A stretch of 32,000 bases of DNA from Edaphobacter aggregans (GTDB lineage Bacteria; Acidobacteriota; Terriglobia; Terriglobales; Acidobacteriaceae). The notes under the pieces were generated by a model. That model had not been told where the DNA came from, ran no database searches, and saw nothing but the letters and a program-made list of their open reading frames with translations. Numbering within the stretch: position 1 is the stretch's first letter; every line of letters starts with the position of its first letter. The DNA lies in contig NZ_RSDW01000001.1 in NCBI RefSeq assembly GCF_003945235.1, forward strand, positions 1,230,001 through 1,262,000. Direction: 5' to 3'. Below are positions 4,814 to 28,276 of the stretch, piece after piece. The position numbers and the translations under genes are program-made.

Positions 4814-6265
4814 GTGCAGCGGCGTGACTTCCTCAGGTACACCAGCCTCACCCTGGCCCAGGCAGCAACAACCCGGCTCCTGCCCGCCCAGATGCCGATG
4901 GCACAGGACCACGGCTCCACTCCCGCCCCCGAGGGCAAAGCCGACTACACCCTCCACATCGCCCCCGTCACCGTCGAGCTCGCCCCCGAGCGAGTCATCA
5001 GCACCATCGGCTACAACGGCCTCACCCCCGGCCCCGTCCTTCGAATGAAAGAAGGCAAACCCATCACCGTCGACGTCATCAACTCCACCGACGTCCCCGA
5101 ACTGGTCCACTGGCACGGCCTCCTCATCCCCGCCGAAGTCGACGGAGTCGAAGAAGAAGCCACGCCCTTCGTCCCGCCACAAGGTCGCCGACGCTACCAG
5201 TTCACCCCGCGCCCAGCCGGCTCCCGCTGGTACCACTCCCACGCCATGGCCTTCTCCGACCTCCACAAAGGCGCCTACACCGGCCAGTTCGGCTTCCTCC
5301 ACATCGACTCCGGCAACGACCCCGGCCAGTACGATCAGGAAATCTTCCTCGCCCTCCGCGACTGGGAGCCCTTCTTCACCACCTTCATGGACGACACCGA
5401 CGAGGAGGGCCAGAACGACCCGCAACTGGAGAAGCCCGCTGTCCTCAACACCGCCCCGAACGGCCTCGAGGTCAACTCCATGACTTACTCCATCAACGAC
5501 AAGTCCCTCGGTGCCGGCGAACCCATCCGCGTCAAGGAAGGCCAGCGCATCCTCCTCCACCTCCTCAACGCCAGCGCCATCGAGAACCGCCGCATCGCCC
5601 TTCCCGGCCACAAGTTCCGGGTCATCGCCCTCGACGGCAACCCCGTCCCTTCACCCCAACTCGTCGAGACCCTCTTCCTCGGCGCCGGCGAGCGCATCGA
5701 CGCCACCGTCGAGATGACCAACCCCGGCGTCTGGATCCTCGGCGCCACCGAAGACCCCATCCGCGCCGCCGGCCTCGGCATCGTCGTCGAGTACGCCAAC
5801 CAGCACCATCCACCCCAGTGGATCAAGCCCTCCACCCTACGCTGGGACTACGCCATCTTCTCCGCCCCCGAAGGCACCCACCCCACCCCACCCCCAGACC
5901 ACACCTTCGACATGACCTTCGAAAAAATTCCAAGCGGCTCCGGCAAATTCAACACCTGGCTAGTCAACGGCAAACCCTATCCTCACGAGAACGAATTCGT
6001 CCTCCAGCAGGGTGCACGCTACCGCCTTATCTTCCGCAACCGCACTGACGACGCTCACCCCATGCACCTCCACCGCCATCAACTCGAACTCACCGAGATC
6101 AACGGCCGCAAAACCTCCGGCATCATCAAGGACACCGTAGTAGTCCCCTATTACGGCCGAGCCAGCGTCGACTTTACCGCCAACCAACCCGGCCTCACCC
6201 TCTTCCACTGCCACATCCAGCAGCACATGGACTTCGGCTTCAAAGCCCTCTTCCGCTATGTCTAG
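4814..6265 (+). CDS. Tat-exported three-domain multicopper oxidase (laccase/CueO-like)
   Basis: GTG start with an AGGAGA Shine-Dalgarno at 4801-4806. A twin-arginine leader reads MQRRDFLRYTSLTLAQAA. All four copper-binding motifs are present: VHWHG, WYHSH, HPMHLHRH and HCHIQQHMDFGF. Confidence 0.9.
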   Translation: MQRRDFLRYTSLTLAQAATTRLLPAQMPMAQDHGSTPAPEGKADYTLHIAPVTVELAPERVISTIGYNGLTPGPVLRMKEGKPITVDVINSTDVPELVHWHGLLIPAEVDGVEEEATPFVPPQGRRRYQFTPRPAGSRWYHSHAMAFSDLHKGAYTGQFGFLHIDSGNDPGQYDQEIFLALRDWEPFFTTFMDDTDEEGQNDPQLEKPAVLNTAPNGLEVNSMTYSINDKSLGAGEPIRVKEGQRILLHLLNASAIENRRIALPGHKFRVIALDGNPVPSPQLVETLFLGAGERIDATVEMTNPGVWILGATEDPIRAAGLGIVVEYANQHHPPQWIKPSTLRWDYAIFSAPEGTHPTPPPDHTFDMTFEKIPSGSGKFNTWLVNGKPYPHENEFVLQQGARYRLIFRNRTDDAHPMHLHRHQLELTEINGRKTSGIIKDTVVVPYYGRASVDFTANQPGLTLFHCHIQQHMDFGFKALFRYV

Positions 6266-6281
6266 ATAAGTAACCGAGCAG

Positions 6282-7685
6282 CTAATTGCGACGACCCAGG
6301 GTTGGGCGATCGTCGGTGGTGCTGGAGCCGTTGCCGTTATTGGGGTTATTGGGATCGTTGTTGCCGCTCCCGCTGCTGGTTCGTCGCAGGGTGGGCTTGT
6401 TGCCGTTACCCTTGTCGTTGAGCTTGCGCTTGTTTTCGATGCGGGCGAGGCGGGCTTTGACATCGTCAAACTCGCTCGTGGTGACGATGTAGTCAGGCTT
6501 GGCAGGCATGATGGTCGCAATCTCGTCCTCAGAGTGTGCGATGCGATCCGGCGTCTGGGGGTGGTCGGCGAAGACCTTGGAAAGGGTGCCGGGTTTGTGC
6601 TTCTCTAGTGCGTCGATCTTCTCGAAGAACTGGATGAAGGCCTGTGGGTCGTAGCCAGCCTTGTACATGTATTGGAGGCCAAGCCAGTCGGCCTCAGCCT
6701 CATCGATGCGGGAGAACTTGAGGAAAGTGATTGGGATGGCGAGCTGGGTCGCCTCATAGATGCCGTAGCCGGTCCAGGTGCCCTGGGTAAAGATGATCAG
6801 GGGGATGGAGCCGATCTGGACGTAGTTCATCTTCGTCATCTGGCGGGCTGCGTGGTGGGCACAGACGTGGGCCGTCTCGTGGGCCATGACGCCGGCGAGT
6901 TCGGCCTCTTCATCAGCGGCTAGGATAAGGCCGGAGTTGACGTAGAAGAAGCCGCCGGGGAGCGCCATGGCGTTGATCTCATCGGAATCGAGAACTTTGA
7001 TGGTAAAGGGAACCTTGCAGTCGGAGTTCTTGACGATGTTCTGGCCGATGCGGTTGACGTACTCGACAATGACGGGGTCGGTGACGAGATGGGCAGACTT
7101 CTCGATTTCCATGGAGTAAGACTTGCCGTTGCGGATCTCCCAGTCGGTGGAATACCAGTTTCCAATGCCGCGTCCGCCGATGTTGCGGGTGCCGACGGCG
7201 TTGACGTCATCTTCGCTGCCGGGCTTGATATGGGGATCGAGATGCTCACCGGGGGATGGGAGGGAATCGGCCTTCTTGCTGGCAGTGTCTGTAGCCTTGC
7301 TGTCAGTGGTCTTACTGTCGGCCTTAACAGTGTCGGGCGCCTTGGAGTCCGCGTCCACTGTGGTTGGTTTGGTGGTGTCAGGTGTCTTGGTGTCGGTAGT
7401 GGTCGACGTGGTGGTGTCGGGTGCCTTGGTGTCCGTTGCCGTGGGCTTGGTTGTGTTGGACGTCTTGCTGTCCGCTGGTGCGGTGGACTTGGAGGCCTTG
7501 GAGTTCCGAGGTGGTGGTGGAGTATCGGTTGGCTGTACGGAAGGCTCAGTGGTCTGCTGGTTGTCCGGTGACGCTGCCTGCGGATTCGTCGGTTGGGTGC
7601 TGCTTGGCTGGGTGGCCTGGGCATAGGAGAGAATGGTCGAGAGAGCGATGGAAGCGGCTAGACTGAAGCGCGCGACGTTACGCAT
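6282..7685 (-). CDS. Secreted M48-family zinc metalloprotease (BepA/LoiP-like catalytic domain) with long Thr/Asp/Lys/Pro-rich N-terminal linker
   Basis: A GAGGAG Shine-Dalgarno lies upstream of ATG 7685. The signal peptide is MRNVARFSLAASIALSTILSYAQA. The HExxH motif HETAH sits at 6867-6881. The M48-type C-terminal segment reads EAEADWLGLQYMYKAGYDPQAFIQFFEKI. A low-complexity linker spans about 7250-7613 and carries reiterated (S/T)K(A/T)PDT(T/V) motifs. Confidence 0.85.
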   Translation of the reverse strand: MRNVARFSLAASIALSTILSYAQATQPSSTQPTNPQAASPDNQQTTEPSVQPTDTPPPPRNSKASKSTAPADSKTSNTTKPTATDTKAPDTTTSTTTDTKTPDTTKPTTVDADSKAPDTVKADSKTTDSKATDTASKKADSLPSPGEHLDPHIKPGSEDDVNAVGTRNIGGRGIGNWYSTDWEIRNGKSYSMEIEKSAHLVTDPVIVEYVNRIGQNIVKNSDCKVPFTIKVLDSDEINAMALPGGFFYVNSGLILAADEEAELAGVMAHETAHVCAHHAARQMTKMNYVQIGSIPLIIFTQGTWTGYGIYEATQLAIPITFLKFSRIDEAEADWLGLQYMYKAGYDPQAFIQFFEKIDALEKHKPGTLSKVFADHPQTPDRIAHSEDEIATIMPAKPDYIVTTSEFDDVKARLARIENKRKLNDKGNGNKPTLRRTSSGSGNNDPNNPNNGNGSSTTDDRPTLGRRN

Positions 7686-7832: not shown

Positions 7833-8252
7833 TTACCAGGTGTTGTAAGAGGTGCCTTCGGAAGAGGTTTCCTGGGCGCCGGAGTGAACGTCGCTGATAC
7901 CGGATTGGGTCTGGTCGATGGTCATCAGGGAGTCGTCCTGGACAGCGAGCCACGTGTCGCTACGGTGGGTAAAGGGATCGACAGGCATGGCTTTGAGGTA
8001 GCCAGCCTGGACGAGATCGTCAAGGGTTTGTGGAGCCTTTTCTTTGTCGACGGTGTAGGAGTCGATGGCGGTGCGCATGGTGTGGAGGTCTTCCTTGAGG
8101 ACGGCCTCGCGTGCGTGGCGCACGTTATTCATATAAGAAGGGATAGCGATCGCTGCCAGCGTGGCAATGATGATCATAACGATCATCAACTCGAGGAGAG
8201 TGAACCCTTGCTCGGCGTGGCGCGGGGAACGGGATGGAGGGGTGGCTACCAT
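7833..8252 (-). CDS. GspG-like pseudopilin (type II secretion / type IV pilin fold) with class III prepilin signal
   Basis: Leader and cleavage motif: MVATPPSRSPRHAEQG|FTLLELMIVMIIIATLAAIAIPSY, with Glu at +5. The GspG-type body reads REAVLKEDLHTMRTAIDSYTVDKEKAPQTLDDLVQAGYLKAMPVDPFT. The ATG at 8252-8250 overlaps the stop of the upstream gene (ATGGTAG). Confidence 0.85.
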   Translation of the reverse strand: MVATPPSRSPRHAEQGFTLLELMIVMIIIATLAAIAIPSYMNNVRHAREAVLKEDLHTMRTAIDSYTVDKEKAPQTLDDLVQAGYLKAMPVDPFTHRSDTWLAVQDDSLMTIDQTQSGISDVHSGAQETSSEGTSYNTW

Positions 8253-8800
8253 GTGGAGTATTTTGTCCCGTCTAGGGCGGTGCCGGTGCTCTTGGTGTGG
8301 ACGTCAAAGACGTTTTGACCGCCGAATGAGTCGGAGTCCGTATCATCCTGGTTGGAACGGAGGCCCCATTCCGCGGTGCCAGTCATGGGATCGATAGGGA
8401 TGCGGCGGAGGAACTTGACTGTCTTGCCCTGGATTTCAACGCCGTTGACGAGGGTTTCGAGGTCGGGGGGATAGTTGTAGCTATCGGCTTTGGTCTGCAT
8501 CCCGCCCTTATCAGCTGCGTCTTTGTAGGCGTCGATGGCGGCGCGCATCTCCCATAGGTCGCGGCGGAGCTCGCGCTCCTTGGTTCGTTTGACCTGGAAA
8601 CGGGCCAATGGAATGGCTGCAGTGGCAAGGATGGAAACGATGGCCACAGTGATGATGAGTTCGACGAGGGTAAGGCCGGATTGAGGATTGCTGGGTGTAA
8701 GGGAGGAACCCACCTTCGCGCAAAAGCTGCGCGAAGGTGGAGTAACCGGATTTTCGACCGGGACCAGAGATGAAGTCACCGGGTTGTTGCGAGCGATCAC
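8246..8800 (-). CDS. GspG-like pseudopilin with unusually long prepilin leader
   Basis: Cleavage motif ...SNPQSG|LTLVELIITVAIVSILATAAIPL, with Glu at +5. The GspG-type body reads RELRRDLWEMRAAIDAYKDAADKGG...YPPDLETLVNG...RIPIDPMTG. The start is ambiguous. GTG 8800 overlaps the secretin TGA as GTGA. In-frame GTGs at 8779 and 8713 are alternatives. The TPPSRS motif shared with the next gene's leader argues that the long leader is translated. Confidence 0.8.
   Translation of the reverse strand: MIARNNPVTSSLVPVENPVTPPSRSFCAKVGSSLTPSNPQSGLTLVELIITVAIVSILATAAIPLARFQVKRTKERELRRDLWEMRAAIDAYKDAADKGGMQTKADSYNYPPDLETLVNGVEIQGKTVKFLRRIPIDPMTGTAEWGLRSNQDDTDSDSFGGQNVFDVHTKSTGTALDGTKYSTW
8710..8740. repeat. 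Perfect 13-bp inverted repeat (stem-loop) within the leader-coding part of the first pseudopilin gene
   Basis: CCACCTTCGCGCA (8710-8722), loop aaagc, TGCGCGAAGGTGG (8728-8740). The two arms are exact reverse complements. The function is unknown. Confidence 0.7.
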
Positions 8801-11223
8801 TTCACATGCACCACGGCCTGCGAACCGACGGCCGGGAGATTGGCCTGGGCGCTGTTACGGGCGCCGACCTTGACGAGAGCGAGGTTGGAGTCACCGGCTG
8901 CTGTCGCCTTGAAGGTGAGGGTGGCGATACTTCCCTGCCCGTTGACGCCGGCTACATTCGGCGGGCGGGAGGTGGATATGGTAACGAGACCATTCCCCTC
9001 ATCACGATGGACGATGGAGACTGCTTGACCGTCACGACTGAGCAAGTCGCCAGCGTCGACATTGACCAGTTCGAGGACACTGGGATTGAACTGGACCTGG
9101 AGCGGCACAGAATAGACGTCGCGCGCTCCATTGAGCATGATGGCAACCTGGAAAGTACTGCCTACGGGTTGGTTAGTAGCCGGAGCGTTGACGGTAAAGC
9201 TTATGGGTAAGCCACCGGTGTTAGGCGTCTGGCCCGGTGGAGTATTCAATATTTGGCCCGGCGTCGTCGGCGGGGCTATGGGCTGAGACTGCTGCTGAAG
9301 CTGCTGGACCATCGCAGCAGCCGCATTAGCTGCCGAGGTCGGCTGACCTGCCTGGGTGGGCCTCCGTGGATTTACGGGAAGAGCCAGGTCGGCGGCGGCT
9401 TGATCGGCAGTGATATTTGCCCGGCGCAGTTCGATCGACTGTCCAGTGCCGGTATCAATAGCGCGAGTATTGATACGGGTCAGAACCGACTCGCGGACGA
9501 TGTGAGGAATGAGGAGGAAGACGATCTCATCCCGTTGGGTCTCTCTGGACTGGGTAGAGAAGAAGTACTTGAAAAATGGCAATTCGCCGAGGCCCGGTGT
9601 ACCGCTGACACCCCTATTGTCCTGACGGGTGATGATACCGGCGAGGATACTGGGCTCGCCCTCCTTGAGTTGGATGGTTTGCTCGCTGATGCGCTGGCTG
9701 ATGACGGGCTCAGTCACGCCGGAGATGGTGACGGAGCTGGTCTGCGATGAGACCTCGACCTTGAGCTTGAGGGAGACCTCGCGGTCGTAGTGGACGGTGG
9801 GGGTCATGTCGATGTTGACGCCGACGTCGAGATAGGTGAACTGAGTCTGTACTCCAATACTGGCGACGCCGGTGGAGACACCGGCGTTGTAGGAGCCAGT
9901 GGCCACGGGAATCTTGGAGCCGATCTTGAGCGTGGCACGCTGGCCGTCGGTGGCGCGGATGCTCGGGTTCTGCAGGAGGCGAGTGTCGGCATCGGACAAA
10001 AGGGCCGTAAGCGTGCCTGGGCCGACGGTGACGGCAAAGTTGGTGGCGTTCAGATTCGCCAGAGTATTGAGGGTGAAGTTGGACGGCGTAGTGGTAGTAG
10101 TGGTAGTGCTCGAAGAGGAGCTGGAGGAAGTGGTGGTGCTGGGGCTGGCCTGAGGCTGTATCGAGATGGACTGCGGGAGCGTGATCCCAAGGTTGCGCAT
10201 CCGGTCGCGGTTAACCTCGAGGATTGCGACGTCAACAACAACCTCGGGACGGGCGCGGTCCAGATCGTTGAGAAGCTTTTGTGCGAGAAGCAGCTGGTCG
10301 GGGGTGGCACGGACGACGATGGCGTTCTGGCTAGGAACTAGGTTGACCTTGGTGCTGGGATCGAGGACGTTGCGAAGGGCTTGGGTGACTTCGTTCTCGT
10401 CGGCCTGTTGGCTGGCGTTGGTGAGGTAAAAGGTCTGGACGGCCTGCTCATCGAGGTCAGTGCGCTTGGTGCGGGTATTCTGGGCGACGAAGATGGTGTT
10501 GGAGGTGACAGGCTTATAGAAGGTTCCAGCGAGAGCACCAACGATGTGTAGGGCATCGGACCAGCTGACATTTGTCAGGTCGACGGGAATGCGCTTGGAC
10601 GTGTAGTCGGGATCAAACAGGACGTTGAATCCAGCGGCCTTGCCAATTGCCTGATAAATGACCTTGACGTCCTCAACCATGTGGATTGCGGGGATAGGAT
10701 CGTTGGACAGAGGTTTCAGCTCAACGGGGCCGGCTATGGATCCGAGGTTTCTAAGAATTTCATCCTGGTTTGACATCTGCTCTTGGGGCGGAGACGCACC
10801 TGACGGCTGCGACTGTTGCTGCTTGAGCAGAGGCTGGACTTGGTCTATTTCCTGGCTGGCGGTCTGGTTGCTAGGGTCTATCTGGAGGGCGCGTGTGAAC
10901 TCGTTGAGCGCTCCGGTAAGGTCGCCGCTTTGGCGCAAGACGCGGCCGCGGTCGACGTGGGAGACAGCAGCTTGGAACTTCATGCGCTCGTAGCGCGCCT
11001 TGTAACGGAGATCCTTGGGGCTCTTGAGCAAGGCCTGATGGTAGGCTTCGTAGGCAGTGTCCCAGTCCTGATGCGCCTCGGCGGCCTCACCCTTCTTATT
11101 CCAAGAGCTTGCGGATTGGGCATGAGCCGAAGCAGAAGTAAAGCCTGCGAGGCAGGACAGAAGAAGGAGCACCTGAGCGGCGCGTATCGATAGCGTACTG
11201 ATTCGTCTTTTCCCGCGACCCAT
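8797..11223 (-). CDS. Secretin (GspD/PilQ family) with N-terminal TPR module and C-terminal cohesin-like domain
   Basis: The track ORF extends to 11424. I prefer ATG 11223 because it is followed directly by a signal peptide, MGRGKRRISTLSIRAAQVLLLLSCLAGFTSASAHA.
- TPR-like repeats at about 10864-11103.
- A secretin core at about 9490-9960 (ATDGQRATLKIGSKIPVATGSY...GTPGLGELPFFKYFF...EIVFLLIPHIV).
- A C-terminal cohesin-like beta-sandwich at about 8800-9215. Confidence 0.85.
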   Translation of the reverse strand: MGRGKRRISTLSIRAAQVLLLLSCLAGFTSASAHAQSASSWNKKGEAAEAHQDWDTAYEAYHQALLKSPKDLRYKARYERMKFQAAVSHVDRGRVLRQSGDLTGALNEFTRALQIDPSNQTASQEIDQVQPLLKQQQSQPSGASPPQEQMSNQDEILRNLGSIAGPVELKPLSNDPIPAIHMVEDVKVIYQAIGKAAGFNVLFDPDYTSKRIPVDLTNVSWSDALHIVGALAGTFYKPVTSNTIFVAQNTRTKRTDLDEQAVQTFYLTNASQQADENEVTQALRNVLDPSTKVNLVPSQNAIVVRATPDQLLLAQKLLNDLDRARPEVVVDVAILEVNRDRMRNLGITLPQSISIQPQASPSTTTSSSSSSSTTTTTTTPSNFTLNTLANLNATNFAVTVGPGTLTALLSDADTRLLQNPSIRATDGQRATLKIGSKIPVATGSYNAGVSTGVASIGVQTQFTYLDVGVNIDMTPTVHYDREVSLKLKVEVSSQTSSVTISGVTEPVISQRISEQTIQLKEGEPSILAGIITRQDNRGVSGTPGLGELPFFKYFFSTQSRETQRDEIVFLLIPHIVRESVLTRINTRAIDTGTGQSIELRRANITADQAAADLALPVNPRRPTQAGQPTSAANAAAAMVQQLQQQSQPIAPPTTPGQILNTPPGQTPNTGGLPISFTVNAPATNQPVGSTFQVAIMLNGARDVYSVPLQVQFNPSVLELVNVDAGDLLSRDGQAVSIVHRDEGNGLVTISTSRPPNVAGVNGQGSIATLTFKATAAGDSNLALVKVGARNSAQANLPAVGSQAVVHVK

Positions 11224-11587
11224 GCTGCTTCCGTTTTTGTCCTTTACAGCGTGAAAAGTACGGCGTCTGCCGGAGCACACGCCTGCCACGGTGGGACGGA
11301 CGCTGCCGGTGGGGGCGGTGCCTGTCAGGCTATTGCGCTCGGGTGAGTATAGCACTTGCAACTGCATTGACCTCGCTAAAGGGGAGTACGGCTTTTGAGT
11401 CATACGCTTCGCTGGACTCGGCACAGGGATCGCCTAGGACCTGCGAGAAGCCTGCGGCGCGGTAAGTTCGCGATGGAAGCCCCCCTGACGAGAATCGGTA
11501 TCGAATGACAAAGGTTAGACGCGGATGTCCGCTGGTGGATAGGTGTTAGCAGGCGGTGATTGCAGGCATGTTAAAGTAAGAGATTCG

Positions 11588-17665: not shown

Positions 17666-19702
17666 TCACTTGCCTGCGGGTGATGTGCTCGCGGTAGTTG
17701 TGGGAGCGACAGTGAGGACTACACTTTCCTGGTCCTTAGTCTCCACCTTGTTATAGAAGGTGCGGAGGTCAAAGTACTCGTTCGGCAAAAAAATGATCTC
17801 GCCCAACGTGTAATCCCGGCGGAAGGTGACGCTGGTTGGAGTGGACTCCGTTTTAAGGGTGTATGCAGCGGAGTTCTGAAATTGTTGTTTATCGCCGGTT
17901 GGGAGCGATTCCACTTTGAAAGTTGAGGGAAAGTTGATGCGAACGGCATCCTGCGCGACTTGGGGGTAATGGAAGTAGACGGCGACCTCCCGCTTCTCGT
18001 GAGGAAAGGTTGGCTTGGAGTTGGTTTCGAAGATATCGCCGGTGATCAGGAGACGCTTTCCGGTGGAGGAGCCGATCGGACCTTTGACGTAGAAGTTGAC
18101 GGAGAGAGGCTGTTCGTAGTCTTCGAGTTTTTCGATTGAGGATAGCTTGACGTCCATCCCCTGCGGCAGGAGATGTTCCAGACTGACGCGCAGTTCGCGT
18201 TCGAGACTGGTCTGGTCGCCTGTAAGCGAACGCTGCCGCCAGCTCATCGCCGGAGCCCCAATGTAAGTCATCTTGATGGCTCCAGTAACGATTCCCTGCT
18301 GATCCATGGTCAGGTTGGCAACACGCTGAACGTGGGATGCGGTGTAGGGTTCACGCGGAGTCTGAATCAGAGCGGTGCCTGAGTCGGTCTGGCGCAGACT
18401 GCCCGCCATGGTGTGCTTCCAGGCGAGATGCTGATATGGGCAGTAGCGCGAACCGGGATCGAAGTATTGCTCCTTGCCATCGACGTTGACGATCGCGATG
18501 TCGTCGTCGAATTGCGACATGTTGAGATAGCCCGCAAGAAAGATGTTGTGATCACGACTGACGACTGTGGAGAGATAAGCCTTCATACCAGCAGCGCGAG
18601 CCATAGCGACGAAGAGGGTGGCAAGCTGGTCTCCGTTGCCGCGCTTGTGCTCCCATATGTCGTCGGTGTTACGGACCTCGTGAAGACCCTGGGCCTTTTC
18701 TTCAGCGTCAGAGTGTTCGCGGGTAAAGTCGGTGTTCTCGAGCTTCATGACAGCGGCGTATATCTTGCGAAGCTTCTGGTCCTGCGTGTCTGTGGGAGTG
18801 GTTAGATCCTGAACAGCGGCGCGGATGCCGGGGCCGGGCCCAATGAATTTATCGCGCAGCTTGGACCAGTGCTTGCCCTCGCTCTTCCAAGCTTCGTCAG
18901 CGGTGCGGTAGGGCGAATAGTAGAAGAGAACGCGGAAGGAGAGGCTGGTTATCGGTGGCATGTACTCCTCCTCGGGGGCGGGAGGAACGTCGTGGGCGTT
19001 GACTTCGAAAGTGTACCGGCCATTATTTCCGCCCACGCCGGGTAGTTGTGTTTTTTTGAATTCCGCAGTGGCAGGCAGGACAGGAAACCAGGCGATGCTG
19101 CTGGTAAGCTGACCACGATCGTCACTGCTCACAAGCTGTTTGTCGGTCGGCTTCCACATATAGTGAGCTTTGCGGGTGTAGAGGTCGGATTGGATGTACC
19201 AGCTGGGAGCCATGAACCAGTGATCGTCCATACGGCGGGTGTATCTATACTCGATGATGCTGCCTACCTCGACGTCGGGTAGCGTAAAGACCTTGGCCAT
19301 ATGGCGCATCTCCTTGGTCTTTTCGATGAGTTTGTCGTAGGGCTTGCCGCTGAATGGGATGGCGGTGCCGTCAGGGTGAATGGTTCGACCGGCGATGTCG
19401 TTGACACTGATGCCGCCCTCGCCTTTCGAGTACGGCAGCTCAACGTTGGCGTACTCCTTACCCTTCTCCGTAAGGACCTTGAGACGAATGTAGATGCTGA
19501 ACATGTGCAGATCGTCTTCAGTCTTCTCTTCTCGGAAGAGATAGACGGCAGCGGCACCGGGAACCTCGGGCTGCGAGGTCATGGAGAGCTCTTCTTTGGT
19601 GGGGACTGTCCACTGATCGGCTCGAGCAAGCGGGGCGGCAAGGCTGATAAGTGAGGCAAGGAGTACAGTTCGGAGGAGGCGAGAGCTTAACGTGCACTTC
19701 AT
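17666..19702 (-). CDS. Secreted DUF3857 / transglutaminase-like / DUF3858-type protein lacking the catalytic Cys and His (predicted inactive paralogue)
   Basis: The signal peptide is MKCTLSSRLLRTVLLASLISLAAPLARA. The overall architecture parallels the upstream paralogue. The segment aligned to the transglutaminase core reads RGNGDQLATLFVAMARAAGMKAY, with Gly (18632-18634) where the paralogue has Cys. FDDDIAIVNV occupies the place of GNHMIAAIEI. Confidence 0.7.
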   Translation of the reverse strand: MKCTLSSRLLRTVLLASLISLAAPLARADQWTVPTKEELSMTSQPEVPGAAAVYLFREEKTEDDLHMFSIYIRLKVLTEKGKEYANVELPYSKGEGGISVNDIAGRTIHPDGTAIPFSGKPYDKLIEKTKEMRHMAKVFTLPDVEVGSIIEYRYTRRMDDHWFMAPSWYIQSDLYTRKAHYMWKPTDKQLVSSDDRGQLTSSIAWFPVLPATAEFKKTQLPGVGGNNGRYTFEVNAHDVPPAPEEEYMPPITSLSFRVLFYYSPYRTADEAWKSEGKHWSKLRDKFIGPGPGIRAAVQDLTTPTDTQDQKLRKIYAAVMKLENTDFTREHSDAEEKAQGLHEVRNTDDIWEHKRGNGDQLATLFVAMARAAGMKAYLSTVVSRDHNIFLAGYLNMSQFDDDIAIVNVDGKEQYFDPGSRYCPYQHLAWKHTMAGSLRQTDSGTALIQTPREPYTASHVQRVANLTMDQQGIVTGAIKMTYIGAPAMSWRQRSLTGDQTSLERELRVSLEHLLPQGMDVKLSSIEKLEDYEQPLSVNFYVKGPIGSSTGKRLLITGDIFETNSKPTFPHEKREVAVYFHYPQVAQDAVRINFPSTFKVESLPTGDKQQFQNSAAYTLKTESTPTSVTFRRDYTLGEIIFLPNEYFDLRTFYNKVETKDQESVVLTVAPTTTASTSPAGK

Positions 19703-19756: not shown

Positions 19757-21751
19757 CTACTTCTTTTTGAGGACGGCGCTACTTTGTTCGTCGGCAGCAA
19801 TAACGCCTGCCAGTTTCTGGAGATCGCTATACCGGTCGGCGGGAAGAGTGACCTCGCGGACGGTATAGGTGCGACTGTAGTGGAGGACGTTGTCCTTGAC
19901 TTGAGTGGAGCTCTCGTAGGCGGCGAAGCCCATGTCGAGCTTGACGGGCTCAGGAATCTCATCCACCGCGTAACCGGCGGGCAGCTCGATGTCGTAGTCG
20001 TCGATTGCCTGCATAGTCTCCTTCATGTCGATGGGGATGCGGCGTGTTTTGTGTTCGGTGTATAGGCCCTCACTGCCTAGGACGCGAGGGCGCACCATGA
20101 GCAGTGGTCCCATCACTTTGCCGAAACGGTCGGCGTTGAGAGCGAAGGTCGTGGTGAGGTCCTTGTTAAGGGCCTCGGCGTTTTCAACCTTGAAATCGGA
20201 GACTTTGAAGGTGGTGAAGTCCTGCTCGAGGAGGTGGTCGAGAGAGTCGCTTTGCTCCTTGGCATCACCAGAGGTGTAGAGAGTTCGGCGGCCTTCGGAG
20301 ACATCGCCGAAGCGCTTCTCTGTAACTGTACCTTTCAGGGAGCCATCGGGCTGAAGTTGGAAGCTGGCGGTGCGGCGGATGGTATTGAGTTCCGGTGCGA
20401 GGAGGGGAAACTTGATGACCTGGCTGTTGCTGCCTTCCATCAGGATGCCGTAGCTTCCCTGGAGGTTGTGCTCCAGCTGGCCGAAGGCAGTCTTGTCCCA
20501 TGTCGGATCGAAGATGAGGTATTGCCGGCCTGTCTTTGCGGTGACGACACTGCGGAGCTTTGGCGAGCTGTATCCCTTGGGGATTTCGATGGCCGCGATC
20601 ATGTGGTTGCCCACGATGGATGGGGCGTCGGGATCGATGACGCCGCGCCGGGTGTCGACCATCACGAGCGCAGCGTGAATGTCGACGGCAGAGAGCATCG
20701 CTGCAAGCAGGGTTGCCTTGTCCTTGCAGTCGCCGTAGCGATTACGGAAGATATCGCCGGCGAAGTGAGGCTGGTAGCCGCCAATGCCCATCTCGATGAC
20801 GAAGTAGCGGACCTGCTTCTGAACGAATTCAGCGATGGCTTCGGTTTTGTCGTAGAAATCGGTCTTGCCGGCGGTAAGTTCTTTTGCCTTAGCGGCGATC
20901 TCAGGGGTAGGGATAAGGCGATCCTTAGAGAGAGTCTGATACCACTCGCCGATGCTTTGCCACGAACCCTGACTTGCGGCAGGAGCTCCTGGCGGGGCGT
21001 AGTGCACGGTCATACGGCCGGCGAGGGCCATCTCAGAAGGACGCATCTGAACGTGCTGAAGTTCGATGGCAGGAGTGTCATTCATCTCCCATCGCCAACG
21101 CTGGTGCTCAAGATCGATGGACTTGGTCTGCTCATGGTGAGCCCATACTGTGCCGTAGGTATAGCCAGGAGGAAGCTCAAGTGTGAAGGCTTGATGGAGA
21201 CGCGGAGTGTCACTTTGGAAGTGCCAGGTCTTCTCAGTCAGGTAAGGCAGGACACGCTGTTCGTACTCGTAGGCGACGACGCCACCTGGATCGCGGCCGG
21301 GCGCCCGCGCTGCCTTGAATTTGATGTCTTCAAAGAGATTGCCTTGGCCGGGATAGCCGAACTCGACGATCTCCTTATCCTTGACCTCATATTCGTGTCC
21401 GTCGGGACCGACGCTCCACACATGGAGGGAGAGAATCTTCGTGTCTTTGTCGAAGGGCACATAGACGATGGCCTCGTCCCTGCCCTGAGGCCGGAGAATC
21501 TTTATAGCGGAACGGTAGTGCTCGATGGCGCTGCCGTCGGGGGCTACGGAGTAGGTCGTGTCCTCAAGAAGAATTGCCGCGTTGGTCTCTGGGGTGTAGG
21601 CTGGGAGTTTTTGCGCAGCGGCTGTGCGAACCCACTCCGGAACACTGTCCGGCTTGGCTGCGAGTAACGGCGACGACGTGATGACAGCGAGGACGGCAGA
21701 GACGAAGAGATGCTTACGGACTCTTCGCAGTGGAACAGTGCAGCCAATCAT
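19757..21751 (-). CDS. Secreted DUF3857 + transglutaminase-like (Cys-His-Asp) + DUF3858-type protein
   Basis: The N-terminus is signal-like (KHLFVSAVLAVITSSPLLAAKP). The core motif is RYGDCKDKATLLAAMLSAVDI, with the Cys codon at 20726-20728. GNHMIAAIEI and LIFDPTWD supply candidate His and Asp residues. The family call is from memory of DUF3857/transglutaminase proteins. Confidence 0.75.
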   Translation of the reverse strand: MIGCTVPLRRVRKHLFVSAVLAVITSSPLLAAKPDSVPEWVRTAAAQKLPAYTPETNAAILLEDTTYSVAPDGSAIEHYRSAIKILRPQGRDEAIVYVPFDKDTKILSLHVWSVGPDGHEYEVKDKEIVEFGYPGQGNLFEDIKFKAARAPGRDPGGVVAYEYEQRVLPYLTEKTWHFQSDTPRLHQAFTLELPPGYTYGTVWAHHEQTKSIDLEHQRWRWEMNDTPAIELQHVQMRPSEMALAGRMTVHYAPPGAPAASQGSWQSIGEWYQTLSKDRLIPTPEIAAKAKELTAGKTDFYDKTEAIAEFVQKQVRYFVIEMGIGGYQPHFAGDIFRNRYGDCKDKATLLAAMLSAVDIHAALVMVDTRRGVIDPDAPSIVGNHMIAAIEIPKGYSSPKLRSVVTAKTGRQYLIFDPTWDKTAFGQLEHNLQGSYGILMEGSNSQVIKFPLLAPELNTIRRTASFQLQPDGSLKGTVTEKRFGDVSEGRRTLYTSGDAKEQSDSLDHLLEQDFTTFKVSDFKVENAEALNKDLTTTFALNADRFGKVMGPLLMVRPRVLGSEGLYTEHKTRRIPIDMKETMQAIDDYDIELPAGYAVDEIPEPVKLDMGFAAYESSTQVKDNVLHYSRTYTVREVTLPADRYSDLQKLAGVIAADEQSSAVLKKK

Positions 21752-21958: not shown

Positions 21959-24900
21959 CTACGGAACGCGGAGGGGACGGAAGCCGGTCGTCGGGAAGAG
22001 GCCCGTCGCGTAGCTTTCGGTTGGATACTGCGGCTTGAAGGTGTACCGCACGAAGAATCCACCGGAGACGGTGTTGTAGTTGTTCGTATTGTTGGCGACG
22101 AGGTAGCCGCCTACGTACCAGTGCTCGGCGACATGGTAGGCCGCCTCAGAGTTGATCGCATAGTTCAGACCTGTGTCGCTGTTCTGGGGGAAGAATGCGT
22201 TGCCTGAACCGGTCTGTAGTGGGCGGTCGAGCGGGAAGTAGGGTGCGCTGTCTTCCTGAAATGTCTGTACGCCGATGCTGCCGTTGATAGTGTAGTGGAA
22301 GTTCGTCTTGTAGTACCCGTTGAAGGTGACCGGGACCGAGGACAAGAAATAGATGTTGGGGCTGAAGTAGCCCCCCTGTCCGTAAGTCATGCCGCGCTCG
22401 TTGTGGTCGTAGTGCATCCCGAAGAAGCCGACTCCCATGTTCAGGCTGCCATATCCTGGCCAGTTCTTTACTCGGAAGTAGGAGCCCATCGTTCCTTCGA
22501 ACTTGAGGTTATCGAGGACGTGATAGCCATTGAGGACGGCACCGCCACCATTAACGTAGATCCCTGCACGTTCGTTGCCTATATCGAGACGAACGCCACC
22601 GCCAGTAGAGATGACGCCACCCCAGATATTGCCGGCGAAGACCGGCGAGATGGTGCCGGGATCGCGGAGGCCGGCGTAGGAAAGCTGCGTGTCCTTGACC
22701 GAGTCGCGGTCGCCGAAGAAGGTAAAGTGGCCGCCCATCGGACGCCACTGCGCGCGGCCTGTAATGTTAGAAACCAGAAATCCGTAAGGTGTGTAACCCG
22801 CTGCGAGGCCGATGTTAGCCGTCGTAAGCTGCAGTTCGCCGCCTACGCCGCTGGCGAACTGCTGAGCGGGTGTGTTCAGGGCATTTGCAGGCAGCGTGCC
22901 GAGGATCGGGATAGTGCCAGTGGCGGTCTGGAAGAACGCGCTATCGATAGTGCCGGAGTTGAGGAAGACGGCTTTGGGAACGACAGTAAGACGGACCGTT
23001 TTGCCCAGCACTGCGGAGGCTTCGAATGGGGCCTCGAGGTCGGTGAGGCGATCGAACCCAGCTGTGCCGCTACGATAACGGGCGTAGCCTGTGCCGCCAA
23101 CCCAACCGCTGTAGGAGCCTTCGAGAGCTGCCAGTTCGAGTTCAGTCTTCGCGCGCTGCGAGAGCGGTCCTCCAGGGACGACAGATGCGTCGTAGGAACC
23201 ACGGAGGGGTGGGACGCTCTTGGCAACTAAGTCGGCATCGGTAGGCGGTGTTCCTTGTGGAATGGGTGCCCCGAGAACGGGATAGCCGGAGTCATTGAGA
23301 GGCTGAGGAACGTTCGGATAGTTAAGCGCTGGGAGAGCGGGAGCTGGAGGCGGCGCAGTTCTTGTAGGTGCCGGCTGCGATGTGTGGCGACGAGCCGTGC
23401 TGGAGGTGCTGTGAGGATACACTCCCGGCTGAGGATACTGCTGGCCGATACCATTGCCCGGCGGCTGTGACTGGCCGGTATATTGCGCGTTCTGCGTTGT
23501 AAGGGTGTCCGGTGGCGGGTTGCTCTGTCCCATCATTACAGGACCGGAACGGGAGCTGGGGCGTGCATTAGGCACGTAGCGTGCGGTGGGCAGGACGTCG
23601 GTGATTTCGGCCTGTGCCGGCGCCGGTCGCGGACTGTTGTCACCTAACTGTATCGGGACAGGAGATGGAGTATAGCCAGCGTTCTGCGATTCCGGCACAT
23701 AGGGAACGTAGGGGCCGTAGACCTCCTGCGGAGGAGGAGCAGCCGTGATGGGAAGCGGTTGCAATTCTGCCCGCTGTGTTGCGGCGAGGATCTGCTGACG
23801 CTGGTAGTCCTGGGTAGAGACGATCTCCGGGGCAGCGGACGGATAGAGCTGCGGCTGGACGGTGGCTGCCTGCGGAACATAGTCCTTTAGGGTCGATCCA
23901 CCGGAGCCCTGTTGCGGGGTGCGTGAGCTGGGATTGGCCATGTACTGCGGGACGACGCTGGAGGTTCCGTTGTACACATTACCGTTATTCATATTGACCT
24001 GGACCGGAGCCTGTCCGTAGGAGTTGGTGTAGCTCGGCAGGTATGGCTGGGTTGGCTGACTGGGCTGCGAGGCAGCATCGGCAGCGTCCGGAGTGCCCAG
24101 AAGGGTTGCGAGATCCTGCGGCTCGGCCGGTTTGGGCAGGCGGGCCACCGGCATGGGCTGGCTGAGTTCGTTGGCCAGTTCGGCGCCGGGGTCCCCTGGC
24201 GGAAGAGCGGCGAGCGAAGCCTTGTAGTAGTCCGCTGCTCGGCTGCTGTTTCCACGGGCCTGCTCGAACTTGGCTCCAAGGTTGAGCATCTCGGCGTCCT
24301 TGGGATAGGCATCGAGGCCGTAGCGCAGCCATGTCTCGGCGATCTTGGTGTCTCCCGCAGCTAGAGCTGCGCCGACGGCGGCCTTGTAGTCGGAAGCAGA
24401 GGCCGAGGTCATGTCCTGTGCCTTGAAGATGGCAACGGCCTGCTTGGGCAATCCCGCGCGGGCGTATCCGGAAGCGAGTGCGCGGAGGACTCCGGGGTTG
24501 TCGGGGAATGACTTTGCCGCAGCGTTGAGGATGGCAAGGGAACGTTTGACGTTGCCGGCAGCGGCTGCCTGATTGGCTCGCCGAACAGCCCAGTTGGTCC
24601 AGATGGTTTGGACTGTGCGGCGCTGCTCGTCAGAGAGATCCTGACGACTGCCAAGCAGCATTAACTGACGATAAAGCCCTGCGTCGTTGCTACCATTGAA
24701 CAGGAGCCATGCATCCTGAATGTCAATGTCGGCCGGGGCAGAGGTATGCTGTAGCGCGTAGTGTTGCTGGACGCGGTTGATGAAGACCCTGGCCTGCTGA
24801 GGCTGGCCGAGCGCGTTGTAAACGGCACCCATCGTCTGGAGGTATTCGACGTCAGACTCGAGCTGAGTGCGCACAGCGGGAGGTATCTGCTGAACCTGTG

Positions 24901-26908
24901 CCAGGGCCTCCTGATCGCGGCCTGCGGTATGAAGCGCAGCGAGCAGTCCCTTCCATGCATCGGGATGGTCGGTGTTTTCAGCCAGAACCTGACGGTAGAT
25001 GGGGTAGGCCTGTTGCGGATTGTTGCGCATCAGGTAGATACCAGCCAGTTGGAGTAGGACTGCCGCGCTGGGTTTCTTGCCTGCGTTGACCTGCTGGGCT
25101 ACTGCTTTCTCCAGAATGTCCTGCGCGATATCGAGTTTGTTCTGGCTCTGGTAGACGGCGGCTACGGTCGTCTGGAAGCCGGGATCGCGCATCGCAGCCT
25201 GGTAAGTCGTCGGCGGCATGTTGCCGAGTGTCTGCACGGCCTGCGCGTCCTGCTTCATCGCGTGATAGACACGGACAAGACCTTGCCAGGCTTGCGTGTT
25301 GTTCATATCGATGGCGAGGACCTGACGATAGAGCCCAGCGGCCTGATCGAGATGATTGGCCTGCTGGAGAAGGCTTGCGTACTGGAGCTGTGTCTCAACC
25401 TGTAAACCATGCGCATCTGCAGGAAACGGCAGATCGAGGGCACTGCGAAGAACACGTTGTGCGTCGGCGTCGCGGCCCACAGAAGAGTAGGCGGAAGCGA
25501 GCGTGCGCAGGAAGTCCGGATCCTTCATCAACTGGCTGTGGACCGCAGGGGGGATACGGCGCTCCGTCAGCAGCGCCTGTGGAGCGTTGCCCGCGCCGTA
25601 CTGCGCCATGAAGAGGCCGCGCCATGCAGCCGTGGAGGTGGGCTTTGCCTTGACGTAGCGATCAAATATCTGGATAGCCGCCTCAGGCTGCTGCGCCTTG
25701 AGCAAGGTGCCGCCGAGACCTTCAAGCGCCTCGGTGCTTGTGGGCCGCATGGCAAGCGCTGCCTGATACTTCTGCTCGGCGGTGGTGAGATCGTTTTCAT
25801 TGAGGGCAACGGAGCCCTCGCCCATGGTGAACCAGAAGCGGGCGGTTTCAAGCGCCGTATCAAGGCCAGCATCGCGCGCACCGTACTGCTTGGCCTGCTC
25901 AAGGAAGCTCATGGCTCCGCCGAAGTTGGACTGCTGCATGCGCACATAGCCCATTCCAGCAAGAGCGCGGGGATTCTGCGGCTCGCTTGCGAGGATGGCC
26001 TTGAAGCGAAGCTCAGCATCATCGAGACGCTTGGCGTTCAGGGCGTTGTAGGCCTCCTGCTCCTGTGCGGTGCGCGCTCGCTGCTCGGCGGTGAGGGCGG
26101 TACCATGTGTCGCGCTGGGCTTGGGCTGGTTGTGCAGAGCTTGGCTTAGTTGCGCATCATTATGCTTGGCGAGATACGCTCTGATGTCGGCTGCTGAGGC
26201 CGGGTTTGCTGAGTCCCACACGAGCGACTGGCGCAGCGCCTCGACCGCCTGAGGACTATCGGGATGCCGCTCTAAGAGCTTACGGCCCTCGGCGCGGGTC
26301 TGCGGGTTGTAGGTCAGGATGCGGCCAAGCGCAATCTGATATCGCGAGTCGTTTGGATACTTCTCGACCAAGGAACGCAGCCCTGCGATGGCATGGGGAC
26401 GGCCGTCATCGGTGGCCGACTCGGTCTCGTAGTAGGCGAGAGCCCAGTCGCCGGGGGGTGGCGTGCTGCCAAAGATCTGACGGTAGATCGCCATCGATTG
26501 CGCATACTGTCCGGACTGAGCGTACTTCCCTGCCTGCTGAAGCTGGGCTGCCTGACTCTGCTGCGAGCCCATGTTCTCAATGCGGGAGATATTCGGGTCG
26601 TTCGGGTTAATTGCTCTCAGACGATCCAGATACGTGCTTGCCAGCGGAGCATTACCGTTCAGCTTGGCTGCACGAGCAAGACCAGCCAATGCATCAACAT
26701 TCACGGGATCGGCAAGCAGTACCTGCTGCCATGTCTGCTCGGCCATGTCCATCCGGCCGCGAAGCTCGAAGGCGTGTGCCTTATCGAGCAACGTCTGGGT
26801 CGCCGATTGTGTGGTCTGTGCGCGCAGTGCAACGGGAACCGACGTGCAGGCCAGAGCGCCAAATAGAATGGCCGCCGCCAAAGGCCGAATTGACGCAACA
26901 CTCTTCAT
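21959..26908 (-). CDS. bcsC: Cellulose synthase operon protein C (long TPR array + C-terminal outer-membrane beta-barrel) with a ~300-aa Pro/Gln-rich insert
   Basis: 1649 aa. The signal peptide is MKSVASIRPLAAAILFGALACTSVPVALRA. Many TPR-like repeats fill about the first 900 aa. The C-terminal region (ELELAALEGSYSGWVGGTGYARYRSG...YFRVKNWPGYGSLNMGVGFFGMHYDHNERGMTYGQGGYFSP) is typical of the BcsC C-terminal domain. Confidence 0.88.
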   Translation of the reverse strand: MKSVASIRPLAAAILFGALACTSVPVALRAQTTQSATQTLLDKAHAFELRGRMDMAEQTWQQVLLADPVNVDALAGLARAAKLNGNAPLASTYLDRLRAINPNDPNISRIENMGSQQSQAAQLQQAGKYAQSGQYAQSMAIYRQIFGSTPPPGDWALAYYETESATDDGRPHAIAGLRSLVEKYPNDSRYQIALGRILTYNPQTRAEGRKLLERHPDSPQAVEALRQSLVWDSANPASAADIRAYLAKHNDAQLSQALHNQPKPSATHGTALTAEQRARTAQEQEAYNALNAKRLDDAELRFKAILASEPQNPRALAGMGYVRMQQSNFGGAMSFLEQAKQYGARDAGLDTALETARFWFTMGEGSVALNENDLTTAEQKYQAALAMRPTSTEALEGLGGTLLKAQQPEAAIQIFDRYVKAKPTSTAAWRGLFMAQYGAGNAPQALLTERRIPPAVHSQLMKDPDFLRTLASAYSSVGRDADAQRVLRSALDLPFPADAHGLQVETQLQYASLLQQANHLDQAAGLYRQVLAIDMNNTQAWQGLVRVYHAMKQDAQAVQTLGNMPPTTYQAAMRDPGFQTTVAAVYQSQNKLDIAQDILEKAVAQQVNAGKKPSAAVLLQLAGIYLMRNNPQQAYPIYRQVLAENTDHPDAWKGLLAALHTAGRDQEALAQVQQIPPAVRTQLESDVEYLQTMGAVYNALGQPQQARVFINRVQQHYALQHTSAPADIDIQDAWLLFNGSNDAGLYRQLMLLGSRQDLSDEQRRTVQTIWTNWAVRRANQAAAAGNVKRSLAILNAAAKSFPDNPGVLRALASGYARAGLPKQAVAIFKAQDMTSASASDYKAAVGAALAAGDTKIAETWLRYGLDAYPKDAEMLNLGAKFEQARGNSSRAADYYKASLAALPPGDPGAELANELSQPMPVARLPKPAEPQDLATLLGTPDAADAASQPSQPTQPYLPSYTNSYGQAPVQVNMNNGNVYNGTSSVVPQYMANPSSRTPQQGSGGSTLKDYVPQAATVQPQLYPSAAPEIVSTQDYQRQQILAATQRAELQPLPITAAPPPQEVYGPYVPYVPESQNAGYTPSPVPIQLGDNSPRPAPAQAEITDVLPTARYVPNARPSSRSGPVMMGQSNPPPDTLTTQNAQYTGQSQPPGNGIGQQYPQPGVYPHSTSSTARRHTSQPAPTRTAPPPAPALPALNYPNVPQPLNDSGYPVLGAPIPQGTPPTDADLVAKSVPPLRGSYDASVVPGGPLSQRAKTELELAALEGSYSGWVGGTGYARYRSGTAGFDRLTDLEAPFEASAVLGKTVRLTVVPKAVFLNSGTIDSAFFQTATGTIPILGTLPANALNTPAQQFASGVGGELQLTTANIGLAAGYTPYGFLVSNITGRAQWRPMGGHFTFFGDRDSVKDTQLSYAGLRDPGTISPVFAGNIWGGVISTGGGVRLDIGNERAGIYVNGGGAVLNGYHVLDNLKFEGTMGSYFRVKNWPGYGSLNMGVGFFGMHYDHNERGMTYGQGGYFSPNIYFLSSVPVTFNGYYKTNFHYTINGSIGVQTFQEDSAPYFPLDRPLQTGSGNAFFPQNSDTGLNYAINSEAAYHVAEHWYVGGYLVANNTNNYNTVSGGFFVRYTFKPQYPTESYATGLFPTTGFRPLRVP

Positions 26909-27054
26909 ACGTTCGCCGCTCGGATGGACGATGCTGGAGGACTAGCATCGACACCTGTGCCGTCCCTCCGAAGCTTACCGCTTTTTTACGGATTTGTACC
27001 GTTTTATTCTGGTATTTACTGTTTTGTTATTGCTTGATTCAGCAATTGTTGCAA

Positions 27055-28245: not shown

Positions 28246-28276
28246 AATGGTTTCTCCCCTGAAGGGCCCCATGTGC

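Follow-up and report, generated by a model that had tools for sequence, protein, structure and literature searches.

Gene content of the cassette

The 32,000-bp stretch of the Edaphobacter aggregans genome analyzed here (contig NZ_RSDW01000001.1, positions 1,230,001 to 1,262,000 of the forward strand; hereafter the window) carries a cassette of three minus-strand genes, identified from their open reading frames (ORFs) and Pfam matches, which encode a secretin of 808 amino acids (8797..11223, from the ATG at 11223) and two prepilins, pil1 (8246..8800) and the GspG-like pil2 (7833..8252). The evidence below makes it likely that this cassette is the detached outer half of a cognate, split machine resembling a type II secretion system (T2SS), with its motor genes elsewhere in the genome.

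An earlier note on this DNA had described the three genes as tightly packed with overlapping stop and start signals, and re-reading the sequence gave the same two overlaps. The secretin stop TGA (8799-8797) overlaps the pil1 start GTG (8800-8798) as GTGA (8797..8800, minus strand), and the pil1 stop TAG (8248-8246) lies within ATGGTAG (8246..8252, minus strand), whose ATG (8252-8250) is the pil2 start. Among the related loci described below, the −4 overlap of secretin and pil1 recurs in 16 and the −7 overlap of pil1 and pil2 in 15, the other cassette junctions being mostly gaps of at most 60 nucleotides. Pfam searches of the remaining 13 long ORFs in the window gave zero matches to T2SSE, T2SSF, PilM, PilN, PilO or the A24 peptidase family, and none of GspC, GspL, GspM, GspH, GspI, GspJ and GspK was found by Pfam among the ORFs of the 32 kb. 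This agrees with the note, according to which ATPase, platform, alignment proteins and prepilin peptidase are all absent from the window.

Domain organization of the secretin

The secretin and pilin-type assignments made in that note hold by profile hidden Markov models, the GspG label of pil2 being a likeness that falls under curated cut-offs. In the secretin, Pfam detected Secretin (PF00263, 119.2 bits, cut-off 27.5; residues 408-577, profile positions 2-169 of 169), Secretin_N (31.9 bits), TPR_2 (40.2 bits) and Cohesin (PF00963, 49.7 bits, cut-off 24.1), and it gave no match to the AMIN domain. The best curated family is GspD (TIGR02517), at 140.8 bits far under the cut-off of 351.35, and the PilQ model (TIGR02515) scored 112.3 bits against a cut-off of 284.35. 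The closest solved sequence to the pore domain is the T2SS secretin XcpQ (5wln, E=1.6e-21).

We combined these matches with an AlphaFold2 model built from a 38-sequence alignment, with a mean predicted local distance difference test (pLDDT) score of 70 and a predicted template modelling score (pTM) of 0.35. Read from the ATG at 11223, a signal peptide precedes a tetratricopeptide repeat (TPR) region at residues 38-138 (10810..11112, minus strand, as for all parts of this gene), where Pfam matches TPR at 88-120 and the model shows helical repeats with pLDDT of ~90. The N-domains follow (10246..10686), an N0/STN-like domain at residues 180-260 and Secretin_N at 263-326 by Pfam and model; the model has two alpha/beta N-domains in all (180-345), with a pTM of only 0.35, and an STN domain was found at the position equivalent to N0 in the Ralstonia and Vicinamibacteria orthologues described below. 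Residues 346-400 (10024..10188) form a Ser/Thr-rich low-complexity insert predicted to be disordered (QASPSTTTSSSSSSSTTTTTTTPSNF; pLDDT <50), and residues 408-577 (9493..10002) the PF00263 pore domain with its beta-barrel and gate, modelled as beta-sheets at ~415-577. A disordered Pro/Gln/Ala-rich linker at residues 588-670 (9214..9462; pLDDT 31-53), the least conserved part of the protein, aligning in just 11 of 59 loci, leads to the C-terminal cohesin domain at residues 677-808 (8800..9195; pLDDT ~90), modelled as a beta-sandwich spanning 674-808. Foldseek searches matched the core of the model to type II, III and IV secretins (E 1e-16) and the last domain to the cohesin structures 2xdh, 2jh2 and 6kgc (TM-scores 0.76-0.81). 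More than 7000 secretin homologues share the same architecture, and no description of a native secretin-cohesin fusion was found in the literature searched.

In the distant orthologues of loci L002 and L084, the stretch that separates the pore domain from the last N-domain likewise contains comparable Thr/Gly/Ser runs. The insert may serve as a spacer or may be glycosylated.

The orthologues of Vicinamibacteria and Ralstonia have the TPR region too, preceded by clear lipoboxes in L083, L084 (both Vicinamibacteria) and Ralstonia. The window secretin has the sequence LLLSC, a doubtful lipobox, followed by a good signal peptidase I site (AHA|Q), and the consensus of Acidobacteriaceae secretins contains no conserved lipobox Cys. 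Self-piloting secretins and TPR pilotins offer parallels, namely the "liposecretin" HxcQ and the TPR pilotins PilF, PilW and Tgl. As in these systems, a TPR module may be tied here to secretin assembly, and the Vicinamibacteria and Ralstonia orthologues have lipoboxes; unlike in the TPR pilotins, the module of the window protein is fused to the secretin itself, and its role in assembly is putative. In the Tad system, the lipoprotein TadD is reported to act as the pilotin of the secretin RcpA (PMC10499894). We can only guess that the TPR domain may be a built-in, pilotin-like assembly domain.

The cohesin resembles non-cellulosomal cohesins such as that of Archaeoglobus fulgidus (PDB 2xdh) in its Pfam match and predicted fold (TM ~0.8), and differs from them in being tethered to a secretin through a disordered linker of ~85 residues. 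By analogy with the S-domain of GspD, the secretin C terminus is expected to lie on the periplasmic side, in which case every pore would be fitted there with a ring of tethered cohesins. The tethered domain may, again as a guess, serve as a docking site.

Two prepilins with class III signal peptides

Both pilin genes encode an N_methyl domain (PF07963), with 30.4 bits for pil1 and 33.7 bits for pil2 against a cut-off of 21.2, and a class III signal motif, QSG|LTLVE in pil1 and EQG|FTLLE in pil2, with Glu at +5 in each. The mature part of pil1 (8249-8674, 142 amino acids) runs from LTLVELII through GTALDGTKYSTW; that of pil2 (7836-8204, 123 amino acids) follows a 16-residue leader ending in AEQG and itself ends in GTSYNTW. 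The likeness to GspG is closer for pil2, which scored 19.3 bits with T2SSG (PF08334, cut-off 21) and 56.3 with the curated GspG model (TIGR01710, cut-off 88.85), compared with 24.6 bits for pil1 against the GspG model. With a profile of the pil2 family, the best solved match was GspG 5wda (E=9e-13), including the GY..LP.DP motif. The two pilins are paralogues of each other (hhalign probability 99.9%).

The leader of pil1 is 42 residues long if translation starts at GTG 8800, and 13 residues long, with no overlap with the secretin gene, if it starts at the internal GTG 8713; in some of the related loci the overlapping start is the sole one in frame. Counted from the most upstream start, leaders in loci L001-L082 span 12-75 residues for pil1 and 9-158 for pil2, with highly conserved mature parts. 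Prepilin leaders of this kind appear unusually long and variable, and certain loci offer no start other than that of the long form; the pil1 orthologue of Vicinamibacteria has a leader of 8 residues only.

Conservation of the cassette in Acidobacteriaceae and Terriglobales

A scan with one genome per species gave 80 loci with secretins 47-92% identical to that of the window. Nearly all are labelled Acidobacteriaceae, other Terriglobales or Acidobacteriota, and the few other taxon labels look like mis-binned contigs; among the best 120 secretin homologues, all at least 68% identical, the named ones are from Edaphobacter or Acidobacteria. In all 76 scorable loci, i.e., those with an intact secretin ORF and downstream DNA present, pil1 and pil2 follow the secretin gene on the same strand, and pil1 is 61-98% identical to its window counterpart. 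None of these 76 loci (0/76) has a GspE-type ATPase gene within 10 kb. No ORF with a GspE-type Walker A motif was present in 1.63 Mb of flanking DNA, where the sole matches were ClpX and one FtsK-like protein.

Over 59 loci, the median identity to the window proteins was 79% for SmpB, 76% for pil1, 64% for pil2, 63.5% for PepA and 51.5% for the secretin. Because the pilins are conserved like housekeeping proteins, a periplasmic pseudopilus fits better than an exposed pilus, and these values strongly suggest that pil1 and pil2 are under strong purifying selection. The possibility that the cassette is a decaying remnant was rejected, as every locus has intact, strongly conserved ORFs.

The conserved neighbors of the cassette are smpB, pepA, argS and clp/lon genes, and they bear on the proposal that the secretin is a stand-alone conduit for a non-protein polymer such as exopolysaccharide or cellulose, with the pilins as accessories. 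A bcsAB-bcsZ-bcsC operon does lie 10 kb away in the window, and PilQ/GspD secretins have been implicated in cyanobacterial and myxobacterial slime secretion (PMC12475490). In the other loci, however, the bcs genes are not neighbors of the cassette, the bcs operon has an outer-membrane component of its own, BcsC, and, as described below, cassettes orthologous to this one belong to operons that include the complete set of ATPase and platform genes. We consider this proposal very improbable, and a tie between the cassette and the nearby cellulose synthase operon was rejected because that operon is not syntenic elsewhere.

Orthologous cassettes inside complete operons

Relatives in Vicinamibacteria and Thermoanaerobaculia were found with a profile of distant family members. 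In two Vicinamibacterales loci, L084 and L085, the genes gspF-gspE-pilM-pilN-pilO-pilP-secretin-pil1-pil2 lie on one strand, with a lytic transglycosylase gene preceding gspF, an MshEN domain in gspE, and pilO and pilP assigned by likeness. Locus L083 has the same genes, with the pilins before pilP, and smpB lies divergently upstream of gspF; next to the smpB that adjoins the Acidobacteriaceae secretin this could be a trace of an old arrangement, which as a single case is suggestive only. Twenty metagenomic loci are likewise contiguous from the ATPase through the secretin. The pilins of L083, L084 and L085 share with those of the window the motifs KFLRRIPxDPMT…GGQNVFDV…GTALDGTxYxxW and …DVHSGS…DG..Y..W, and those of Vicinamibacterales share KFLRRIPIDPMT, GGQNVFDV and GTALDGTKYxxW.

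In L083 the gspE ORF (4905-7223) breaks off after the Asp box and continues, by way of an (MR)n repeat, into pilM, giving one ORF of 772 amino acids; either the contig is misassembled or there is a frameshift at a microsatellite of the CGCATG type. Big_1/PKD/invasin-like repeat proteins adjoin the Vicinamibacteria operons (L084, 13559-14833; L085, 13813-15045; L083, 12351-13541), and these large proteins are possible cargo or partners.

When plasmid records were searched at the protein level with the ATPase of Vicinamibacterales, a cluster was found on the Ralstonia solanacearum megaplasmid, with the order gspG-gspF-gspE, four small PilM/N/O/P-like genes, the secretin gene and three pilin-like genes. 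The secretin encoded there combines TPR, STN, Secretin_N, Secretin and Cohesin domains, and in full-length pairwise alignments the window secretin, pil1 and pil2 are 28%, 41% and 39% identical to the Ralstonia proteins, the pil1 orthologue being annotated as a 172-amino-acid "PulG". Ralstonia genome papers note two "unorthodox T2SS", described as gene clusters only (PMC5080846), and the megaplasmid cluster matches the description of one of them. Like the window protein, the secretin of the Ralstonia "unorthodox T2SS", which also occurs in Cupriavidus, Paraburkholderia, Burkholderia and Janthinobacterium replicons, has the architecture TPR…Secretin_N-Secretin…Cohesin, and the gene set and order are the same as in the cognate operon. 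Unlike the window, where the secretin and the two pilins are alone and adjoin smpB, the Ralstonia cluster is contiguous and starts with an extra, canonical GspG (T2SSG 132.7 bits); its secretin has a clear lipobox, compared with the doubtful LLSC of the window. Of the features of the Ralstonia-type system, the TPR-secretin-cohesin architecture and orthologous pil1 and pil2 are thus present in the window, and contiguity with gspF-gspE-pilMNOP, found in Vicinamibacteria, Ralstonia and the 20 metagenomic loci, is absent from the window and ~80 related loci. Across the cognate loci, PilM/PilN-like, GspM-like and PilP-like proteins and one GspK-like protein are present, and no matches to GspC, GspH, GspI or GspJ were obtained.

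The earlier note had offered, as one of two explanations, a reduced and undescribed outer-membrane conduit, and had named orthologous cassettes of relatives inside complete gsp or pil loci as an observation that would refute its inference. Such cassettes lie in complete operons in Vicinamibacteria (L083-L085), in the 20 metagenomic loci and in Ralstonia, and the conduit explanation is therefore not supported.

A complementary locus encoding the motor

The ATPases of the system share the motif NEKKGLTFxRGLR, unlike solved PilB proteins, and a degenerate DNA pattern for this motif retrieved 120 metagenomic loci; among the first 80 tabulated, nearly all have the ATPase of the system beside gspF and/or pilM. 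Sequence extends at least 4.5 kb downstream of the ATPase gene in 34 of the 120 loci. A secretin gene lies 1.8-2.9 kb after the ATPase gene in 20 of these 34, and the ATPase is of the Vicinamibacteria or Ralstonia type in 19 of the 20. Of the 14 loci with a third type of ATPase, 13 have no secretin, and a GspK-like gene stands directly after pilP. This type is labelled "Terriglobales bacterium" or "Bryobacteraceae bacterium" in NCBI records, apart from one Chlamydiota label that is probably due to a mis-binned contig; the order Terriglobales includes the Acidobacteriaceae. Three long contigs (L207-L209) have the order lolA-gspF-gspE-pilM-pilN-gspM-like (pilO)-pilP-like-K-like, and none has a secretin gene within 10 kb. 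Where the operon is contiguous, the K-like gene comes after pil2, as opposed to after pilP in loci of the third type, so the missing block is exactly secretin-pil1-pil2.

A LolA-like periplasmic chaperone gene consistently precedes the Terriglobia motor half, as in L207 (7779-8456), L209 (7956-8621), L112, L089 and L149, and Vicinamibacteria operons have a lytic transglycosylase gene in its place.

This locus bears on a further explanation, in which the cassette is a satellite module served by a non-cognate motor, e.g., PilB/PilC and PilD of a type IVa pilus, the cognate F-E-M-N-O-P genes being absent or unrelated. No motor gene lies within 10 kb in ~80 loci, among the loci compared no genome is known to hold both a cassette and the complementary locus, and prepilin peptidases are shared between systems (PMC6668835), all of which would fit such an arrangement. 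Yet a Terriglobales/Bryobacteraceae locus exists that lacks exactly secretin-pil1-pil2, it retains PilP-like and GspK-like genes that would be left partnerless without this secretin and these pilins, and the strong purifying selection suggested for pil1 and pil2 fits a dedicated partner. A non-cognate motor is in our judgment unlikely. The other explanation of the earlier note, a satellite borrowing a motor encoded elsewhere, stands in outline as to the place of the motor and not as to its being borrowed, the evidence pointing to a cognate motor split off by rearrangement.

The ATPase of the motor locus scored almost equally as PilB (535 bits) and GspE (525 bits), its closest solved relatives are PilB proteins, and the curated GspE and GspF models gave scores under their cut-offs with the proteins of this locus. 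A surface pilus, i.e., an extracellular type IV-like fiber of pil1 and pil2 for adhesion or uptake on a PilM/N/O/P-like platform, would accord with these ATPase matches and with alignment proteins nearer PilM, PilN and PilO than GspL or GspC. We regard it as quite improbable, since the pilins evolve like housekeeping proteins, which typical exposed major pilins do not, the profile of pil2 is nearest GspG, the secretin is nearest GspD and without AMIN domains, and a PilT-type retraction ATPase was found in none of the loci examined.

A probable split T2SS-like machine

Because the orthologues lie in complete operons and a complementary locus exists, we read the cassette as a block from inside an operon that was relocated to the side of smpB. 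Its three genes would supply the outer-membrane pore and the pseudopilus of a T2SS-like member of the type IV filament superfamily that occurs across the Acidobacteriota. The ancestral operon would have been gspF-gspE-pilM-pilN-pilO/gspM-pilP-secretin-pil1-pil2-(GspK-like). In an ancestor of Terriglobia, the internal block secretin-pil1-pil2 would have separated, to adjoin smpB as it does now, and the remaining genes would have stayed together elsewhere as lolA-gspF-gspE-pilM-pilN-pilO-pilP-GspK-like. By homology with T2SS, the exported secretin would multimerize into a gated pore, and its N-domains would contact the platform in the inner membrane by docking on the PilP-like protein. The prepilins pil1 and pil2 would be cleaved by a prepilin peptidase encoded elsewhere and polymerized by the GspE-type ATPase and GspF platform into a short periplasmic pseudopilus, which may drive folded cargo through the pore. 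We infer that both halves are present in the genome of the window and work together, with protein secretion as their presumed function. It is established that type IV filament systems can be encoded at several loci and can share their prepilin peptidases (PMC6668835).

Several points weigh against this interpretation. Among the loci compared, the two halves were never found in one genome or on one contig; cassette loci and motor loci have no flanking genes in common, and the exact pil2 protein of the window is recorded only on 1-kb contigs, which hold no link to a motor locus. The complementary locus is assigned to order level only (Terriglobales), from the labels of metagenome-assembled genomes. 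A local loss of the motor half in the genome of the window is possible, the motor search having covered the window and related loci, and a prepilin peptidase gene was found in none of the loci examined. In every organism, Ralstonia included, the system is known from its genes alone. Since the curated GspD, GspG, GspE and GspF cut-offs are all missed, "T2SS" here denotes likeness and not membership. Finally, the major subunit may be either pilin, and the Acidobacteriota loci examined lack the extra canonical GspG of Ralstonia.

With that qualification, the system is a T2SS-like variant with PilM and PilN in place of GspL, no GspC, few pseudopilins, a TPR and cohesin secretin and, in Terriglobia, two loci. 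It resembles canonical T2SS (Gsp/Pul/Xcp/Eps) in its GspD-nearest secretin, its GspG-like pseudopilins with class III signal peptides, the tight packing of its genes, and the GspE-type ATPase, GspF platform and GspM-like protein of the cognate loci. Unlike canonical T2SS, it has no GspC and no recognizable GspH, GspI or GspJ, PilM and PilN replace GspL, the secretin model (pTM 0.35) has two periplasmic N-domains as opposed to N0-N3, with additional TPR and cohesin domains, scores stay under every curated equivalog cut-off, and the genes are spread over two loci in Terriglobia. With type IVa pili, for which encoding in several loci is normal (PMC6668835), it shares PilM/N/O/P-like alignment proteins and a PilB-like ATPase; it differs from them in having no PilT or PilU, no AMIN domain in the secretin, a secretin score under the PilQ cut-off, and slow-evolving, GspG-like pilins. 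Searches of the literature for acidobacterial T2SS or pili gave nothing useful, and those for "TklG" returned peptide strings only.

The apparent paradox of a pore and filament with no motor dissolves on this account, as the cassette is most likely half of a split operon and no new secretion principle is needed. Acidobacteriota, whose routes of protein export have hardly been studied, rank among the most abundant bacteria of soil; they carry a conserved T2SS-like system under strong purifying selection, with a TPR-cohesin secretin, and the same system occurs in the plant pathogen R. solanacearum, which is readily amenable to genetics. Automated tools designed for single-locus systems would report the two-locus arrangement of Terriglobia as two incomplete systems. 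A bolder proposal, which we hold to be unlikely, is that the TPR-secretin-cohesin machines of Acidobacteriota and Betaproteobacteria form a distinct, unnamed branch of type IV filament systems, in which the cohesin ring is a docking array and the Terriglobia block is separately regulated. If so, a dozen or more cohesins per pore would dock cargo or envelope proteins, a principle of cargo selection or anchoring that is not known from type II secretion.

Flanking regions and other genes of the window

The divergent intergenic region between the secretin gene and smpB (11224..11587, from the starts of the flanking genes) is the presumed promoter region of the cassette. Its length of 364 bp, as given in the earlier note, holds if smpB (11543/11588-12127, divergent from the secretin gene, by ORF and Pfam) starts at ATG 11588; measured to GTG 11543, the first such codon in frame, the length is 319 bp. 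A consensus scan of 11224-11587 detected no sigma-70-like promoter, and a scan for promoters and terminators found nothing above chance. The region has no Rfam match, and across 81 loci no element is conserved upstream of the secretin apart from a GGAG-like ribosome-binding site before the ATG; a regulatory RNA or conserved leader was rejected on these grounds. A longer secretin ORF starts at GTG 11424, its extension (11224-11424) reading MPSPAKRM…LYSPERNSLTGTAP…, and owing to this in-frame extension upstream of the ATG, gene callers annotate secretins of 850-875 amino acids in many databases. Parts of the extension are conserved among close relatives, and the long ORF is probably an artefact.

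Downstream of the cassette, after a gap of 147 bp, the next gene encodes a BepA-like M48 protease (6282-7685, minus strand; 154 bits, under the cut-off), followed by a convergent multicopper oxidase gene (4814-6265, plus strand, by ORF and Pfam), in line with the description in the note. The suggestion of a four-gene cassette including the protease was rejected after the neighborhood survey, in which an M48 gene follows the pilins in just 21 of 82 loci and unrelated genes stand there otherwise. The protease has an N-terminal Thr/Pro/Asp-rich low-complexity region of ~170 residues and a Gly/Asn-rich tail.

Further genes of the window encode a GH3 glycosidase, SmpB, leucyl aminopeptidase (PepA), a TonB_C protein, ArgS and an LPG-synthase-like membrane protein. 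Two adjacent DUF3857/transglutaminase proteins (17666-19702 and 19757-21751, minus strand) are paralogues of ~670 amino acids each, and such a pair adjoins the LPG-synthase-like gene in the closest relative (L001) as well. The cellulose synthase operon bcsAB-bcsZ-bcsC (21959-31999, minus strand) encodes a fused BcsA-BcsB that carries a PilZ domain and is truncated at the end of the window, a BcsZ-like GH8 endoglucanase, and a BcsC of 1649 amino acids that bears many TPR repeats.

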